Shown here in pieces: positions 3,881 to 10,318 of a stretch of DNA of 10,318 nucleotides. The stretch lies in the UHGV virus genome UHGV-1824378. One strand, given 5' to 3'. The stretch comes from a virus. Under the pieces are notes generated by a model. That model was not told where the DNA came from and did no database searches. It worked only from the letters and a program-made list of their open reading frames with translations. Positions within the stretch are counted from its first letter, which is position 1. Each line of letters starts with the position of its first letter. The translations under genes and the position numbers were made by a program.

Positions 3881-5371
3881 TTATATAGCAATTGTTTTAG
3901 TTGCATATCTGAACTTGTCGGTTAGATAATATCGGATTCTCTCAAGTGCATGTTTTACCGCATAATTTTTATGCTTGACTTTTCCGTTACGACCGAATAT
4001 ACACAGATGATCGATAAGATCCCAGACCGTTGCAATATCCTTAGAACCATGTTTACGCAATGCACGACCGATACTCTGACGAACGATAGTTGATTCCTTC
4101 ACTGGATGACCGAAAATAACATGGTGCAAGTTCTTAATTGAAACACCAGTAGAGAATACACCATAAGACGCAACACAAATGATCCCTGTGTCACCCTCCG
4201 CCATTTTCTTAAATTCATCACGTTCTTCTGTCTTAACTCCACCGTCAATATAATAAACCTTGTCGTGTACCTTCTGTAACGCGTCATACATAAGTTTTCC
4301 ATGCTTAGTATTGCGGAACATAAGGAATACGTTTTCACCCTTCTTAGCGAGTTTTAGCGCCAAATTACAAGCAAACTTATTACGTCGTGGGTTAGACGTA
4401 ATATACTTGATCTCTTCCGCATATTCTCGCCCCTTAACCGCGCTACATTCCTCATCGGTATAACGAAGGAAAAGACAGTTAATTTTCAGTTTTGTCACCT
4501 GCCCTTCTTCCATCAGGCGGTCAATACTCACGATCTTAGAAATATCACCGAAAAGCCCGACATACTGCATTAAATGGCACTTTGATTCTTTCGGGGAACC
4601 AGTCATACCGATCTTAAACTGGCAATGATTCATTCCGTTAATGATATTGGTAATATTTTTGGCACTAGCCTTATGCGATTCATCAACTATCAACATTCCA
4701 TATTGTTTGAACCATTCAGGAGGCATCTTGCACGCTGATTGCCAGGTACTAACCGTGATTAACCTGTCTCCCGGATGTTTCCCGCTACCACTCATCATTG
4801 TATGAATTGCTTCATAAGGGAATAACCGATAATCGATGAAATCATCCCTCATTTGAACCACTAGCGATGTAGTCGGGACAATGATTAACACCTTTCCGGT
4901 GTAATGCTCTAAGTACCAACGAGACAGCATACAAGCAATCAATGACTTTCCGGCACTGGTAGGAAGAACCAGCATTCTACGGCGATTGTGGATACCCTGA
5001 AAGACTGCTTCACGCTGATACCAGTAAGGATTGATTTTATTGGAACCGGAATACACTTCTAAAGAGTCAATCCACGAATCAATCTGTTCTTTGGTTACAT
5101 CTTCCTTCTCAAGTAATCGCGGGTCAATCCAGACTGAATAGCCCATATTTTTAACGAAGACACCCAATGTTTTTAATAGTCCAATTGGTAGGGTATTTTC
5201 ATGCGTAAACAGTCTTATTCGTCCATCCCAGCCGGAATACTTGTAGCGGGGGCTAAACCTAGCCCCTTCAACCTCAAACGAGAAATAATCTCTTAATTCC
5301 ATTCCGATAGAAGGAGAGCAATCAACCTTAACGAAACTGTAATCTTGAAAATGAATTTTAATATCTTGCAT
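3881..5371 (-). CDS. uvsW: UvsW-type SF2 DNA helicase (T4 UvsW-like)
   Basis: Walker A LPTSAGKS, motif II DESH, motif III TGS, motif VI QSIGRALRKHG. N- and C-terminal regions resemble T4 UvsW as I recall it (MQDIKIHFQDYSFVKVDC..., ...VWDLID...). I place the start at ATG 5371 (SD ggag upstream, overlaps upstream stop as TAATG); the track ORF starts at GTG 5380. Confidence 0.88.
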   Translation of the reverse strand: MQDIKIHFQDYSFVKVDCSPSIGMELRDYFSFEVEGARFSPRYKYSGWDGRIRLFTHENTLPIGLLKTLGVFVKNMGYSVWIDPRLLEKEDVTKEQIDSWIDSLEVYSGSNKINPYWYQREAVFQGIHNRRRMLVLPTSAGKSLIACMLSRWYLEHYTGKVLIIVPTTSLVVQMRDDFIDYRLFPYEAIHTMMSGSGKHPGDRLITVSTWQSACKMPPEWFKQYGMLIVDESHKASAKNITNIINGMNHCQFKIGMTGSPKESKCHLMQYVGLFGDISKIVSIDRLMEEGQVTKLKINCLFLRYTDEECSAVKGREYAEEIKYITSNPRRNKFACNLALKLAKKGENVFLMFRNTKHGKLMYDALQKVHDKVYYIDGGVKTEERDEFKKMAEGDTGIICVASYGVFSTGVSIKNLHHVIFGHPVKESTIVRQSIGRALRKHGSKDIATVWDLIDHLCIFGRNGKVKHKNYAVKHALERIRYYLTDKFRYATKTIAI

Positions 5372-5940
5372 TAGTTCCACTCCACACTTGCAATATTCTT
5401 TATATTGTTTAGTGATTTATTGCAGTAGTGGAATGTTTCAGTTTTGCCGTATTCAATCCCGCCTATACCCACATCCAGTAATCTCTTTATTGCTCTTTCA
5501 GTGGCTAAAGCATGTTTCATTGATGGCATTTCACCAGCAAAGACAATATCAAAGTTATGACCGGGATTGCGTACACCCAGATTAACACGTCGCTTGATGA
5601 TTGACTTTGTAACACCAAATTTACCAATATCCCCTGATTTCATTACATAGAGATAAGGCACACCCGCTTTATATTGAAAGTAATCACTATTGAAGCAAAC
5701 ACATCGTTTACCTTCATTAAGCAGGTTAGTAGCTGATTTGTCGGCTCTATTACCGCATCGGGTACATGTTAGAGCAATTCTTGAATGAAGCCCTTTAAAC
5801 TCACCCAGAAAGCCATGAAAGACTAACGGTAAGTCCTTCTCTTTGATGTGAGTCAGAATGCGTTGTTCTAATGCCGATGGAGTTACAGCACGGGAGGATT
5901 TAGGAGTAAAAACAATATCTTTAGCCATTACTGGAATCAT
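5371..5940 (-). CDS. Zinc-ribbon + GIY-YIG-superfamily (T5orf172-type) nuclease-like protein, homing-endonuclease-like, 189 aa
   Basis: ATG at 5940 with SD gtgagg. CxxC...CxC cluster (CTRCGNRADKSATNLLNEGKRCVCF) followed by YLYVM...GKFGVTKS...RR...ERAIKR...GKTETF, which matches the T5orf172 / GIY-YIG-like signature as I recall it. Stop overlaps helicase start, implying translational coupling. Confidence 0.6.
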   Translation of the reverse strand: MIPVMAKDIVFTPKSSRAVTPSALEQRILTHIKEKDLPLVFHGFLGEFKGLHSRIALTCTRCGNRADKSATNLLNEGKRCVCFNSDYFQYKAGVPYLYVMKSGDIGKFGVTKSIIKRRVNLGVRNPGHNFDIVFAGEMPSMKHALATERAIKRLLDVGIGGIEYGKTETFHYCNKSLNNIKNIASVEWN

Positions 5941-6002
5941 ATAGACCTCACTTTTTTAACTTATAGGCATAACCTCAATATGGTTGGTTTGGGATTTAGG
6001 GT

Positions 6003-6035
6003 CGCGTATTATACACATTCAGATAGAGAATGCAA
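6003..6035 (-). promoter_or_regulatory. Candidate sigma70-type promoter for the nuclease-helicase operon
   Basis: Minus strand reads TTGCAT (6035-6030), 16-nt spacer, TATAAT (6013-6008), then ACGCG (6007-6003), about 65 nt upstream of ATG 5940. The TATAATACGCG 11-mer recurs at 9051-9061. Confidence 0.4.
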
Positions 6036-6055
6036 TAGTAAGACAATTTTCTCTA

Positions 6056-6062
6056 ATAAATA
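6056..6062 (+). promoter_or_regulatory. ATAAATA heptamer, candidate T4-type late promoter core
   Basis: aATAAATA at 6055-6062, 32 nt upstream of ATG 6095. Confidence 0.3.
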
Positions 6063-6094
6063 GTAGTGAGCTTATTATTTTAGAGGAAACTACT

Positions 6095-7270
6095 ATGAAA
6101 CTTGCTTACGCTGCCGAAATTCCTTTTGTTAAGAAAACTCGCGGTTTATCGCCGGAAGAGTACCAACAACGAATCATCGCTAAACTGGAACCTGCTTTCG
6201 TATTTGGTGGATTTATCCTACCGTGGAAGGGTAATCACACTTACTTTCGAATCTACAATTTAGATACACAAGAATATAAGGACTACAAATTACGCAAACT
6301 GGAAGATACTAACGGGGGTGAGTTATTCCAGACTGAAAAGGCTGTATGGTTGAAAATGGAATCTCGTTGTAATGAGAAGGGAAAGAAATTCCTCGGATGG
6401 CAAGGAGAATGGAAAGGGCGAAATAGAACGAAAGCCCGTGTTTTGTGCCCTGAACACAATCAAATCATGACGCCATCTCTATTACATGCTCTCAAGGATG
6501 ATTTTGATTTTGATTGTAAAATCTGTATGGCTGAAAAATCCCAACGGGTAAGAAGTGGCAAGACTTTTGATGAAGTTATTAAGGACAAAGAGACAATCAT
6601 CAATGCACGTTGCGAGAGTACGCCTTACACCTTCAAAGGATTCATCATAAACACCCCACACCTAAAGGATGTTAAATTTAAAACCTATTGCAAGTCACAT
6701 AACCACGAATGGGAATCTCATTTAAGATGTGCTGATTCTTTCACTTGTCCGCTTTGTATTAAAGACCAACTGGTGCAACTGTCTAACCGGACTTATCAGG
6801 GTAAGGCTAGTTTCTACATTCAATTATTAGATGACAAATTTATTAAATTTGGAATCACTACCCGAAAACCAGAAGAACGAATGAGAGAACAAACCAGAAA
6901 GAGCAACTTCACTCACCGCTTAATCTTTACTCATGAGTTTGAGGATGGTTGGAAAGCTGCCGATTTAGAGCATGAAGTAAAACAACGCTTCAAGACTCAT
7001 GCAGCACCCTACAAAGATTTCAAGGATGGATGGTCGGAAACTCTGACTATTGATGAGTTACCACACTTACAGCAACTGGTTTATGACTACCTAACCAATC
7101 AACCGGACGAGGCTAATATGTGGGTATCTCCGAAAGATGTATTTGATGACGATACATTCAAGCTACATACTCACTTCTACGGCATCAATAAACCGGAATT
7201 TTTCTGTATTGATGACGACAGTCCTGATTTAATGGATGAATACTTTAATACGCTCTTAGACGCTGCCTAA
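6095..7270 (+). CDS. Tandem zinc-finger + GIY-YIG-superfamily (T5orf172-type) nuclease-like protein, 391 aa
   Basis: ATG at 6095 with SD gaggaaa; the track ORF begins at an upstream TTG (5984) that I do not favour. Two Cys/His modules (CPEHN...CKIC; CKSHNHEWESHLRCADSFTCPLC) then FYIQLL...KFGITTRKPEERMRE...EHEVKQRFK...GWSETL, paralogous to the C-terminal half of the 5371-5940 protein. Confidence 0.65.
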   Translation: MKLAYAAEIPFVKKTRGLSPEEYQQRIIAKLEPAFVFGGFILPWKGNHTYFRIYNLDTQEYKDYKLRKLEDTNGGELFQTEKAVWLKMESRCNEKGKKFLGWQGEWKGRNRTKARVLCPEHNQIMTPSLLHALKDDFDFDCKICMAEKSQRVRSGKTFDEVIKDKETIINARCESTPYTFKGFIINTPHLKDVKFKTYCKSHNHEWESHLRCADSFTCPLCIKDQLVQLSNRTYQGKASFYIQLLDDKFIKFGITTRKPEERMREQTRKSNFTHRLIFTHEFEDGWKAADLEHEVKQRFKTHAAPYKDFKDGWSETLTIDELPHLQQLVYDYLTNQPDEANMWVSPKDVFDDDTFKLHTHFYGINKPEFFCIDDDSPDLMDEYFNTLLDAA

Positions 7271-7285
7271 CGCAATTAAATTCAA

Positions 7286-7307
7286 AAGGGGTACAGATGT
7301 ACCCCTT
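7286..7307. terminator. Bidirectional hairpin terminator between convergent genes
   Basis: Perfect palindrome aaggggtac-agat-gtacccctt (7286-7307). Minus strand has the U-tract (plus-strand ttcaaaa 7281-7287); plus strand has a weaker T-run after it. Confidence 0.6.
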
Positions 7308-7343
7308 AAAGTGTTTAGCTCGTTATACGTCGATTTAGGCCGC

Positions 7344-9023
7344 TTAAATTCCAAATTCCTGTAATGGACCTGGTATTTCCTCTTCTGGTTTCCAGTTCTT
7401 ATCTGTCAGCATGTCTAAACATGGATGCAAAACAAGCCCGTTACTTTCCAGAATCTGTCTATCATTGATAGTTTTCAAATCAATGAATATCCGGCCTTTC
7501 CTCGTTCCTCTTGAATTTTCTATTACAACTCTCTGGGTCTTTCCATCGATGTATTCCAGTACAAACAAGTTTTTGTTTCTGTCAATCCTGCTACACCCGA
7601 TCCGCTTTAGAGCTTGCTTAATCTTAAACCGGACCTTTAGTCGTTCCTCGTTGTAAACATCTTCTAAATCAAATTCTGCGAGCTTCTCCCAGCCTTGAGA
7701 GTCAACAGAATACATTTCCTCTTCTGCCATCTTGATCTGATTGTAGAGTGTTTCACGCTCGCTATTGAGGGTAGTAATCTGATCGGCTAGCTCCTTCGTT
7801 GCTCCTGTCATAGCAGAAAGGGCAATCAGGTTATCAATCTTGCGTGATATTTCATCAACCTGTACTTTCAACGCCGGAACCGGATTAGCCTTATCCTCAG
7901 CAATCCAGATTTTATCAGCCAGCAATTGCAATACAGCTTTCTCTAATTGATCCCCTCGAAAACTCCAGTTTGGATGCTCGCAATCAAGTCTACGTGAACG
8001 GGTCGCATCACATGTATAACGATACTGGTCAGAACGTTTGTTTGTTCCCTTCACTTTAACCATAGCGCAACCGCAATGATCACATTTCAATAGGCCAATG
8101 CCACTAAGCAGGGGGATCGGTTTAACTTCTTCCTTGTCTCCAAAGTTCCATGCTCTAGCACCAATATTTTTCTTAAGGTGATAGAACGTAGCATCATCAA
8201 TAACACGAGGGTAATAATCCTTTAACTCATAGTTAACACCATCAACAGAGACCTCCTTGATACCAATCAAAGCGCGGGTATGGAACAACCTTTCAACCAT
8301 TGCCCGTGACCATTTTGAATGCTTCTTGTTGCTTACTGCTGGTGGTGGTGCATATGTCTCGTTAAGGTGATCCAGTATTTCGGCGGTTGAACGTCCATTC
8401 TTCCGTAATTCCACAATCTCCTGAACAACAGGGAAGTATGTAGGATGAGGCAACACATAACCGGAAGTGGTATCAGTCCACCACATATTCTTTCCAACTT
8501 CCTCGATAGCCACTGCCGGATTTTGTGGATTTTCTTGATGAGCTTTAATCTTAATCAATGCGCTTGAGTTAGTACGATTGCGCTTAGTCTGACTTTCCTC
8601 ATTACCACGGATGAATAAAAGGATGGAGAACATCAGGTCCATCGGATTAGCGGTAACAGTATCCAGCGAGTAGATCTTGTTATCCATGCCAGTAACAATG
8701 GTTATTCCCCTACGGATGATTGAAAGGAATAACTCCTGCGCACTGACAATATCGGCACGGGATAAGCGGTCCAAGTTTTCAATGAATAGCCAGCTACCAA
8801 CAGGAACGGATCTACCAATTGCATCAAGGAAACGAGATAGCGCCCCTGTTTTAGAGTTAGCACCCTTAAACGCAGATACACCCAGATCCTGATAATCATT
8901 TACCAGTTCAAGGTCATACTTTGCCGCAACCTCTCTCGCCATCCTGATTTGTCGTTCATAACTCGAACCATCATTCTGACGCATAGACGAGAAGCGAATA
9001 TACGAATACAGTTTAGTTTTCAT
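7344..9023 (-). CDS. Large serine recombinase (serine integrase / resolvase superfamily), 559 aa
   Basis: N-terminal catalytic domain motifs YSYIRFSSMRQ (catalytic Ser), DLGVSAFKG and ENLDRLSR; Cys-rich zinc-ribbon (CDHCGCAMVKVKG...YTCDATRSRRLDCEHP); C-terminal coiled-coil. The size and domain order match large serine recombinases. Confidence 0.88.
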   Translation of the reverse strand: MKTKLYSYIRFSSMRQNDGSSYERQIRMAREVAAKYDLELVNDYQDLGVSAFKGANSKTGALSRFLDAIGRSVPVGSWLFIENLDRLSRADIVSAQELFLSIIRRGITIVTGMDNKIYSLDTVTANPMDLMFSILLFIRGNEESQTKRNRTNSSALIKIKAHQENPQNPAVAIEEVGKNMWWTDTTSGYVLPHPTYFPVVQEIVELRKNGRSTAEILDHLNETYAPPPAVSNKKHSKWSRAMVERLFHTRALIGIKEVSVDGVNYELKDYYPRVIDDATFYHLKKNIGARAWNFGDKEEVKPIPLLSGIGLLKCDHCGCAMVKVKGTNKRSDQYRYTCDATRSRRLDCEHPNWSFRGDQLEKAVLQLLADKIWIAEDKANPVPALKVQVDEISRKIDNLIALSAMTGATKELADQITTLNSERETLYNQIKMAEEEMYSVDSQGWEKLAEFDLEDVYNEERLKVRFKIKQALKRIGCSRIDRNKNLFVLEYIDGKTQRVVIENSRGTRKGRIFIDLKTINDRQILESNGLVLHPCLDMLTDKNWKPEEEIPGPLQEFGI

Positions 9024-9029
9024 ACCATT

Positions 9030-9072
9030 TCCAAAACAAAAAGCCCCTACCGCGTATTATAACGATAGGGGC
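9030..9072 (-). terminator. Rho-independent terminator (minus strand) downstream of the 9089-9334 gene
   Basis: Stem gccccta (9043-9049) / taggggc (9066-9072) with 10-nt loop; on the minus strand it is followed by TTTTTGTTTT (plus 9030-9042). Confidence 0.55.
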
Positions 9073-9084
9073 ATTGGTTAGTAA
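9051..9084 (-). promoter_or_regulatory. Candidate sigma70-type promoter for the serine recombinase, embedded in the terminator hairpin
   Basis: Minus strand reads TTACTA (9084-9079), 17-nt spacer, TATAAT (9061-9056), then ACGCG (9055-9051), about 30 nt upstream of ATG 9023. Same TATAATACGCG 11-mer as at 6003-6013. Confidence 0.4.
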
Positions 9085-9088
9085 GTCA

Positions 9089-9334
9089 TTAATATTTCTT
9101 TCCAGTTAGTTTTGCATCACGTTTATTAATATCCTCGATATGACTCCATACACACGCAGTAATAAAGTCGTCATCGTCACCAACTCCGGCAACCTGTGCT
9201 AATTCAGTACACAGTTGATTTAAAGAAGGTGCAACGGCAGCACGCTTGACACTATCACCCTGTACATATTGTTCGGCATTTGCAGCACCAACCAAACCCA
9301 GAGCAAGAACGATACCCGCGATAATCTTTTTCAT
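9089..9334 (-). CDS. Small secreted (signal-peptide) protein, 81 aa
   Basis: ATG at 9334 with SD gagga. N-terminus MKKIIAGIVLALGLVGAANA-EQY has a basic n-region, hydrophobic core and AxA cleavage site; mature part about 61 aa with two Cys and an acidic DDDD patch. Confidence 0.6.
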   Translation of the reverse strand: MKKIIAGIVLALGLVGAANAEQYVQGDSVKRAAVAPSLNQLCTELAQVAGVGDDDDFITACVWSHIEDINKRDAKLTGKKY

Positions 9335-9368
9335 AGTAGAATTTCCTCTTGTTATTTGAATTACGATA

Positions 9369-9376
9369 TATTTATA
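9369..9376 (-). promoter_or_regulatory. TATAAATA octamer (minus strand), candidate T4-type late promoter
   Basis: Plus-strand tatttata at 9369-9376 is TATAAATA on the minus strand, 34 nt upstream of ATG 9334 and just downstream of the stop at 9380. Confidence 0.3.
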
Positions 9377-9379
9377 TCG

Positions 9380-9505
9380 TTAAAAATTGATGCTAATTAC
9401 CAGACCAAACACAACCGCACCAATCAAATCAATCCAGTTAATACACAATCCGCTATATTCTTTCTTGAATGTCTTAGATGAAATGCCATCATGAAATTGT
9501 TTCAT
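9380..9505 (-). CDS. Putative small tail-anchored membrane protein (41 aa), not in ORF track
   Basis: Hand translation of the minus strand gives MKQFHDGISSKTFKKEYSGLCINWIDLIGAVVFGLVISINF with stop TAA at 9380-9382. ATG lies 3 nt after the upstream small-ORF stop. Short, so speculative. Confidence 0.3.
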   Translation of the reverse strand: MKQFHDGISSKTFKKEYSGLCINWIDLIGAVVFGLVISINF

Positions 9506-9508
9506 TGC

Positions 9509-9589
9509 TCACCCCATACTAACGACAAGATAAGAAAGACTAATCATAGTTGTGAGACTACCTCCCACGAATGAGATAAAAGCTAACAT
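9509..9589 (-). CDS. Putative hydrophobic micro-protein (26 aa), not in ORF track
   Basis: ATG at 9589 preceded by SD ggaga at about 7 nt; translation MLAFISFVGGSLTTMISLSYLVVSMG. Sits directly after a terminator, so expression would need read-through. Speculative. Confidence 0.22.
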   Translation of the reverse strand: MLAFISFVGGSLTTMISLSYLVVSMG

Positions 9590-9603
9590 GTTTGATTCTC
9601 CAG

Positions 9604-9632
9604 TTTAAAAAGCGGTGGGAATTACACCCACC
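9604..9632 (-). terminator. Rho-independent terminator (minus strand) after the 9647-10033 gene
   Basis: Minus strand reads GGTGGG-TGTAATT-CCCACC followed by GCTTTTT (plus-strand stem 9614-9619 / 9627-9632, T-tract complement 9607-9611), 15 nt past the stop at 9647. Confidence 0.65.
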
Positions 9633-9646
9633 AAATTAGAAATTAA

Positions 9647-10033
9647 TTAAGCACGAACGATGGTCAGAGTATCCAGCAAACCTTTTTCGTATAATTCGAA
9701 ACACGTTTTATATTGCTCAATCTGGAAACCATAGCGGGTGATCTTATTCAGTAGAACAATCGCGCTATTCTCATCTAGGTATTGTCCTTGCTTACCAATT
9801 ACATATGACTCGCGGGATAGTTTCAGCTTACGGAAACCTTTAACACCTAATTCCTTAGCCACCGCTTTAATCTCTTTAATCTCACCCTCAGCCGCAACAT
9901 ATTCAGCGTCGATAATCTCAGGTGATGATCTCAGTGCTACCAGAACTAAGGCCATTGCTTCTTCTTCGGTACGCGCAACACCAGCTTTCTCGAAAGTCAT
10001 CTCACCAAATTTACGAATCATGATATTGAACAT
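9647..10033 (-). CDS. Hypothetical protein, 128 aa
   Basis: ATG at 10033, 12 nt after the upstream stop; protein has balanced composition, whereas the overlapping plus-strand ORF 9738..10199 is Ser/Leu-rich antisense-type. Terminator follows. Confidence 0.6.
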   Translation of the reverse strand: MFNIMIRKFGEMTFEKAGVARTEEEAMALVLVALRSSPEIIDAEYVAAEGEIKEIKAVAKELGVKGFRKLKLSRESYVIGKQGQYLDENSAIVLLNKITRYGFQIEQYKTCFELYEKGLLDTLTIVRA

Positions 10034-10045
10034 TGTTTTGCTGCC

Positions 10046-10318
10046 TTACTTCTTGCTGATAAACTCTTTAGCGATAAAGTTGATTACTTCTTTCAGCTTC
10101 TTGTCTGTATCGATGCACGCCGGTAATTCTTCTTTAATCTCCTGCGGCAGATACACATTGCCTTTAAAGTGGAGGAAACCATCATTACCAATCATGTAGG
10201 AGAACATCCATTCACAATCGTTATCCGCTTCCCAGAACGCCACGGCCTCATCGCCAATCAAGGTAATGTCCATGTTGCGACGTGCTGCGTAGTTGATGAT
10301 TGCTTTACCGATGTTCAT
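10046..10318 (-). CDS. Hypothetical protein (90 aa from the ATG at the window edge; may extend beyond)
   Basis: Open frame to the last window base, where nt 10316-10318 cat = ATG. Cannot tell whether this is the true start because upstream sequence is outside the window. Confidence 0.5.
   Translation of the reverse strand: MNIGKAIINYAARRNMDITLIGDEAVAFWEADNDCEWMFSYMIGNDGFLHFKGNVYLPQEIKEELPACIDTDKKLKEVINFIAKEFISKK

Follow-up and report, generated by a model that had tools for sequence, protein, structure and literature searches.

The large serine recombinase of virus genome UHGV-1824378 is very probably the integrase of a temperate Escherichia coli prophage inserted in ycdX

UHGV virus genome UHGV-1824378 (10,318 nucleotides; hereafter the window, meaning the whole stretch analyzed) encodes a large serine recombinase (LSR) at positions 7344-9023. 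The phage is very probably a temperate, siphovirus-like prophage of Escherichia coli, and the LSR is very probably its integrase, which inserts at the host gene ycdX. The original prediction, made from the letters of the window, recognized the LSR from its motifs and placed it in a lytic-looking context; the enzyme class was borne out, and the context proved to be the right end of an integrated prophage. Judged from sequence, the protein carries the full set of protein-level and site-level hallmarks of a phage large serine integrase.

The entire window aligns end to end with E. coli chromosomes at 95-98% identity. In NZ_AP027850.1 (strain 2017.18.04CC) it forms the right arm of an element of ~36.8 kb that has the N-terminal fragment of ycdX on one side and the C-terminal fragment on the other. 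Prophage copies bounded by attL and attR, which had been proposed as a check on the recombinase, were thus searched for in host genomes and found in E. coli chromosomes. The NZ_AP027850.1 element is arranged as follows.

Left end: small-terminase-like gene, Rha-type regulator, large terminase
Next rightward: portal, capsid, then tail genes including a lambda J-like tip protein
Window ORF (open reading frame) 70-1845: C-terminal part of the lambda J-like tip protein
Right part: M15 endolysin, helicase/homing-endonuclease cassette, LSR, three small genes

The structural and lysis genes of the prophage are intact. The LSR gene is present in 57 of 5,426 complete E. coli genomes (~1%) and is chromosomal in every case. 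NZ_CP063332.1 and NZ_CP157110.1 each hold two copies of the integrase gene and are possibly double lysogens with prophages at different sites.

The attachment sites were derived by aligning both NZ_AP027850.1 junctions with the intact ycdX of K-12, which represents the empty site. The sequences below are written with the central dinucleotide set off by hyphens.

attB at ycdX: CCCGGA-AA-TCCCAAAT
attB, extended: ...AAGCCATCCCGGA-AA-TCCCAAATATGAAATAG...
attL at ycdX: CCCGGA-AA-CCCGAACG
attR at ycdX: TTAGGG-AA-TCCCAAAT
attP, reconstructed, ~60 bp: ...CTCGTGTTATTGTGGGTACATGATATTAGGG-AA-CCCGAACGTAGTCAACCCCCAATAACACCGA...
attP, full 60-bp sequence: CTCGTGTTATTGTGGGTACATGATATTAGGGAACCCGAACGTAGTCAACCCCCAATAACACCGA

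The AA dinucleotide is the sole identity between phage and host across attL, attR and the empty K-12 site, which fits the 2-bp non-palindromic crossover of serine integrases. Tyrosine integrases use longer identity cores. ycdX has 245 codons and the crossover is within the one for N134, so that insertion disrupts the gene. On the circular genome attP is flanked by the divergent 90-aa and small-terminase genes. The ycdX-type attP has dyad symmetry about the AA at 20 of 30 positions (P = 1.8e-6), and both of its arms carry a perfect 9-bp GTGTTATTG at -28 to -20. The corresponding values are 19/30 (1e-5) and 13/30 (0.02) for the hicB-type and codB-type attP sites of the sister prophages described below, and the attB sites are only weakly symmetric (8-11/30). 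A comparison of attP and attB half-sites in shifted registers, looking for the resemblance described for the Listeria integrase, gave no register that stood out.

Alignment to NZ_AP027850.1 was used to place the end of the window relative to these sites. The attP/attR half-site begins 13 nt past the last base of the window and the AA crossover lies 43-44 nt past it (virtual coordinates 10361-10362), which puts the crossover 1.34 kb from the start of the LSR gene. The window closes on the three-base start codon of its last gene, and most related IMG/VR provirus records (L033-L060) stop at exactly the same base. The record was trimmed at a gene boundary, which explains why no attP had been seen nearby. 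The intergenic regions 7271-7343 and 9024-9088, put forward earlier as candidate recombination sites, each hold an intrinsic-terminator-like hairpin instead. The annotation oddity is resolved by a temperate phage with the LSR as its integrase and an att site lost through gene-boundary trimming of the provirus record.

Insertion at ycdX recurs across genomes, with the attR junction at this gene in 27 complete ones. The identical LSR protein occurs in 24 contigs, and among the matches listed 8 of 8 loci adjoin ycdY and the csg operon; the att-proximal 90-aa gene adjoins ycdY and csg genes at 10 of the 10 loci among its listed matches. Natural polymorphisms in the attB arms are tolerated. In Salmonella enterica the homologous codon of ycdX is occupied by prophages whose LSR is 75% identical and whose phage arm is recognizably related. 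Salmonella relatives of the prophage have both UvsW and UvsY.

The LSR gene is an ATG-to-stop ORF on the minus strand that encodes 559 aa, organized as follows.

7344-9023, minus strand: LSR gene
Residues ~1-165: catalytic domain and helix E
Residues ~166-300: recombinase domain
Residues ~301-375: zinc ribbon
Residues ~376-455: coiled coil (predicted)
Residues 456-559: C-terminal region

The motifs that had been quoted in support of the assignment are present at residues 8-16 (YIRFSSMRQ), 46-52 (DLGVSAF) and 84-89 (LDRLSR). A profile search recovered the resolvase fold, with Pfam Resolvase (PF00239) matching residues 6-153 (E = 9.2e-15; 55 bits against a cut-off of 23.3 bits), followed by Recombinase (PF07508) at residues 198-287 (E = 4.7e-9) and Zn_ribbon_recom (PF13408) at residues 310-368 (E = 1e-10). 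All three matches exceed their curated cut-offs and stand in the canonical domain order. PHROG 95, annotated as integrase, covers residues 2-484 (E = 5.7e-63). An alignment was assembled from 20 homologues with identities down to 29% that come from Escherichia, Salmonella, Edwardsiella, Enterobacter and marine gammaproteobacteria. The catalytic Ser and Arg residues are retained in this set, with Y8, R10, S12, Q16, D85, R86 and R89 all invariant, and the zinc-ribbon cysteines C314, C317, C338 and C348 are invariant as well.

The AlphaFold2 model of the LSR has a mean pLDDT of 79 and contains a helical recombinase domain and a beta-rich zinc ribbon. A long helix at residues 127-164 corresponds to helix E, and two antiparallel long helices at residues 382-406 and 410-438 form the predicted coiled coil, in keeping with the zinc ribbon and coiled coil claimed in the original prediction. 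A Foldseek search of the PDB with this model returned 9dxd (E = 4.8e-16), 9rah (PhiC31 Int; 2.6e-14) and 4kis (a Listeria LSR-DNA complex; 2.6e-9). The best matches are full-length serine integrases, each with a probability of 1.00; TM-scores are low (0.2-0.4), as expected with multi-domain proteins on flexible linkers, and aligned identities are 13-16%. A search of PDB chains with the single LSR sequence gave no match at E = 1e-3, and a profile of the LSR family reaches PhiC31 Int at E = 2.4e-9. The LSR was also scored against the XisF-type developmental excisionases (NCBIfam NF041201), and this assignment was rejected at 52 bits against an equivalog cut-off of 375 bits.

Close relatives of the LSR are encoded by prophages of the same type that sit in other genes. 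LSR genes with ~93% and ~87% nucleotide identity to that of the window belong to prophages inserted in the antitoxin gene hicB, and a pair with 76-79% nucleotide identity belongs to prophages inserted in the cytosine permease gene codB, each type with its own attP. The sister prophages and their sites are listed here.

hicB-inserted sister prophages: L016/L018 (NZ_CP026723.1); L062-L064; L044, L048, L057 and L059
hicB-type attB, codon 102 of hicB: GAATTGGC-AA-ACCTAAAC
hicB-type attP: ATATTTGGC-AA-CCCGAATG
codB-inserted prophages: L019, L020 and L022 (NZ_CP138416.1, NZ_CP015229.1)
codB-type attB: GGTGGGT-AA-GGCAACC

At the hicB and codB sites the AA lies at the edge of a shared core, and in hicB variants with a TAGGG phage arm the shared core narrows to AA. 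Inserted at codon 102 of hicB, the prophage deprives the antitoxin of its C-terminal, DNA-binding helix-turn-helix region, while the hicA toxin gene stays whole.

Thirteen enzymes with known targets were compared domain by domain. The catalytic domain and helix E occur as two alleles that are ~81% identical, and each allele is seen with both ycdX and hicB targets. The recombinase and zinc-ribbon domains cluster strictly by target. Among the hicB-type enzymes identity is 97-100% for the recombinase domain and 95-100% for the zinc ribbon, and the codB-type enzymes are 97-100% identical in both domains. Over the same two domains the E. coli ycdX-type enzymes are 84-100% identical to one another and ~61-67% identical to the Salmonella ycdX-type enzyme. 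Identities across targets are 77-86% between ycdX-type and hicB-type enzymes and 56-69% between codB-type enzymes and the others. Between the window LSR and a hicB-type enzyme, 33 of 43 substitutions fall within residues 166-375. The recombinase and zinc-ribbon domains of LSRs read the att half-sites, so grouping by target is what the mechanism predicts, and the tracking of target with these domains ties the LSR directly to the choice of insertion site. Positive selection was considered as the source of the differences and rejected. Synonymous divergence in residues 166-375 is 4-5 times that of the flanking domains and dN/dS is 0.17-0.22, which points instead to exchange of an older, diverged module. 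It can be held with about even confidence that these integrases were retargeted to ycdX, hicB and codB when different recombinase and zinc-ribbon modules were recombined into catalytic and coiled-coil scaffolds that are themselves interchangeable.

A mechanism consistent with these data would start with the LSR pairing the ~60-bp phage attP with attB inside host ycdX. Catalytic residue S12 would cleave attP and attB at their central AA, after which the subunits would rotate and the strands would be religated, leaving the phage inserted and ycdX split. By analogy with the integrases of PhiC31, Bxb1 and the Listeria A118 type, the chemistry is expected to be the same, integration to run one way and excision to need a separate excision factor (recombination directionality factor, RDF). 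No RDF candidate was identified; the 90-aa and 128-aa att-proximal genes are each missing from some variants.

Several observations weigh against an active temperate phage with this integrase. The window itself has no att site, and its own insertion site would follow from copies with identical or near-identical integrases. The attP junction was not found by exact or degenerate searches of viral, metagenome and species-representative genome contigs, although this search for the excised form is weak because the viral and genome collections lack even the phage arm by itself. The prophage is absent from 50,697 phage records, in which no isolated phage corresponds to it and the helicase gene alone finds matches at the nucleotide level. 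Nowhere in the element was a repressor, an excision factor or a gene for replication recognized, which leaves its activity as a phage putative. A defective, grounded prophage whose recombinase is an inert relic of a past integration would fit the missing excised form, isolate, and repressor and replication genes, and in some copies the recombinase is truncated or IS1 or IS3 elements have inserted. Such a relic is nevertheless unlikely. The window LSR gene compared with a 97%-identical copy gives a dN/dS of 0.056, which indicates that purifying selection continues, and 56 of the 57 genomes with the gene have it at full length. The presence of the family at three chromosomal sites and in both E. 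coli and Salmonella requires repeated, recent integration, and the structural and lysis genes have remained intact. A few full-length copies are annotated merely as a zinc-ribbon-domain protein, and one copy is interrupted by IS1.

It is very improbable that the LSR is an accessory enzyme, whether an invertase or one that resolves dimers or concatemers, comparable to the YbcK-type LSRs of lambdoid phages. The interior of the window lacks an att site, and the closest relatives of the LSR in isolated E. coli phages are indeed YbcK-type genes (lambdoid phages, DLP12), with 31-32% identity over ~80% of the LSR. In the phage records these genes are internal, at ~40 kb of 49-kb genomes, whereas the window-type LSR is att-proximal, 1.3 kb from the junction, and is the sole recombinase of its element. 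Lambdoid phages integrate via a tyrosine integrase; neither a tyrosine integrase nor another recombinase was found in the 36.8-kb element, where annotation and profile scans of the unannotated left-arm genes gave no second integrase or transposase. The 2-bp junction core and the dyad-symmetric attP are requirements of a serine integrase, and the insertion site shifts together with the DNA-binding domains of the LSR. Near the gene, no inverted-repeat pair that would flank an invertible stretch was seen, and terminator hairpins occupy the intergenic regions on either side. PHROG 125 (DNA invertase) matches the LSR at 1.7e-11 compared with 5.7e-63 for the integrase family. Small serine resolvases and invertases are ~180-200 aa, consist of a catalytic domain and a C-terminal helix-turn-helix, and act at res or inverted sites. 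An enzyme of this class (Tn3, gamma-delta, Hin, Gin) was ruled out by the 559-aa length of the LSR and its recombinase and zinc-ribbon domains.

A smaller, independently mobile selfish island nested in the phage, made of the LSR with the helicase and homing-endonuclease cassette, is extremely improbable: the cassette differs among otherwise near-identical prophages and holds homing-endonuclease-like genes, yet an identical LSR next to wholly different cassettes is not one mobile unit, the split host gene encloses the whole prophage rather than a sub-region, and no second att-like junction pair was seen. The boundaries in split ycdX, the 2-bp core and the tracking of target with the DNA-binding domains together disfavor the concatemer resolvase, cryptic integrase and selfish element that had been offered as roles for the gene.

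The integrase gene is preceded by a group of small genes on the same strand and followed by the cassette, with the following features.

10046-10318, minus strand: first gene of the att-proximal leftward string, 90 aa, PHROG 6147 (unknown function)
9647-10033, minus strand: 128-aa gene between the att site and the integrase, PHROG 14908 (unknown function)
9613-9633: terminator-like hairpin after the 128-aa gene
9089-9334, minus strand: 81-aa protein with a signal-peptide-like N-terminus (MKKIIAGIVLALGLVGAANA), just upstream of the integrase
9033-9072, minus strand: strong terminator-like hairpin (9043-9072; 11 pairs, 7 G-C) and then the T-run TTTTTGTTTT
7286-7307, no strand assigned: palindromic hairpin between the convergent integrase and homing-endonuclease-like genes
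3881-7270, no strand assigned: variable accessory cassette between endolysin and integrase
5984-7270, plus strand: CapR/T5orf172 (GIY-YIG-like) homing-endonuclease-like gene, 428 aa
5371-5940, minus strand: CapR/T5orf172 (GIY-YIG-like) homing-endonuclease-like gene, 189 aa, overlapping the helicase start
3881-5380, minus strand: UvsW-type helicase, full length

The hairpin and T-run at 9033-9072 end ~10 nt before the start codon of the integrase, and the hairpin at 7286-7307 is probably a bidirectional terminator. A scan of 7150-10318 found no sigma-70-like promoters against 8.2 ± 2.7 expected from shuffles, and the integrase would be expressed by read-through from an att-proximal promoter. 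The 81-aa protein has no family match in Pfam and PHROG profile scans. Its gene is bracketed by terminators and is probably an accessory or lysogenic-conversion (moron) gene. The interval 9335-9646 has no ORF of at least 50 aa on the gene-bearing minus strand. It contains two short hydrophobic minus-strand ORFs of ~26 and 42 codons at roughly 9510-9590 and 9377-9505, which are possibly small membrane peptides, and prophage relatives have a 113- or 139-aa ORF in their place. Neither the window nor the left arm of the prophage gave a match in Rfam and tRNA scans. The left arm in NZ_AP027850.1 (locus L002, 3452-4837) includes a 1.4-kb gene-free stretch with at least nine direct copies of TTCAGGGGCAAAAAT (families D1 and D2), inverted copies, and four copies of TCTAGAATCATCTAGTA, again with no Rfam match. 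These repeats resemble iterons or operators and could mark an origin or immunity region.

The UvsW-type helicase and homing-endonuclease-like neighbors were correctly noted at the outset, and it is this cassette that made the region look lytic. The cassette is swapped for other genes in prophages with an identical integrase and, by this sequence comparison, is accessory and outside the integration machinery. A defense-system scan returned generic helicase matches alone, to the UvsW-like protein. The helicase gene is 88-90% identical at the nucleotide level over ~940 bp to uvsW of the T4-like Krischvirus (RB49 group), and 80-90% identical across the Krischvirus group, which suggests recent exchange of uvsW between the temperate prophage and virulent Krischvirus phages. 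In Krischvirus 'Whisky' a gene next to uvsW encodes a homologue with 30% identity to the 428-aa protein, and Krischvirus G5211 has an unrelated GIY-YIG gene at the same position upstream of uvsW. Homology between this G5211 gene and the 189-aa homing-endonuclease-like gene was tested, and the two are not homologous. The uvsW neighborhood looks like a homing-endonuclease hotspot common to lytic and temperate phages.

The window LSR has the architecture of the characterized integrases of PhiC31, Bxb1, the Listeria A118 type (LI) and TP901-1, with resolvase, helix E, recombinase and zinc-ribbon parts and an embedded coiled coil. It shares with them the conserved catalytic Ser and Arg, a short dyad-symmetric attP, a 2-bp non-palindromic crossover, the lack of extended attP/attB identity and structural matches over the full length. 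It differs from the PhiC31-type enzymes in being very distant in sequence (the 13-16% aligned identity given above), and its host is a Gram-negative enterobacterium, whereas most characterized phage serine integrases come from Actinobacteria or Firmicutes. Like SPbeta with SprA (Bacillus subtilis spsM) and the Listeria comK prophages, the window prophage is inserted inside a conserved host coding sequence that could be restored on excision, and it resembles the SprA-type prophages in having the integrase near the att site. It differs from them in that the window prophage gave no sign of developmentally or physiologically regulated excision, and an SprB-like excision factor was not recognized in it.

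The available sections of the catalogue of Durrant et al. 2022 (PMC10083194) report that 82.8-88.3% of LSR clusters target 1-3 gene clusters, which fits the three targets of the window LSR family. Those sections use the same logic as the present analysis, comparing empty with occupied sites, a split target gene and a central dinucleotide; a domain-level mosaic with a target-tracking recombinase/zinc-ribbon module did not appear in them. Catalogues of LSR/att pairs of this kind may already include the present pair.

For E. coli genomics, these data identify ycdX, hicB and codB as attachment sites, which were not described as prophage attachment sites in the literature searched. The loss of the C-terminal region of hicB with hicA left intact could change toxin-antitoxin regulation in lysogens. 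The reconstructed sites provide testable attP/attB pairs for an enterobacterial serine integrase. With the integrase assignment made, the remaining interest lies in a three-target, domain-mosaic integrase family: sister enzymes that are 92% and ~75% identical have different targets and differ mostly in the two DNA-binding domains, which makes them material for the study and engineering of specificity. If the recombinase and zinc-ribbon module alone sets the choice of attB, the family would be a ready-made natural domain-swap experiment on serine-integrase specificity.

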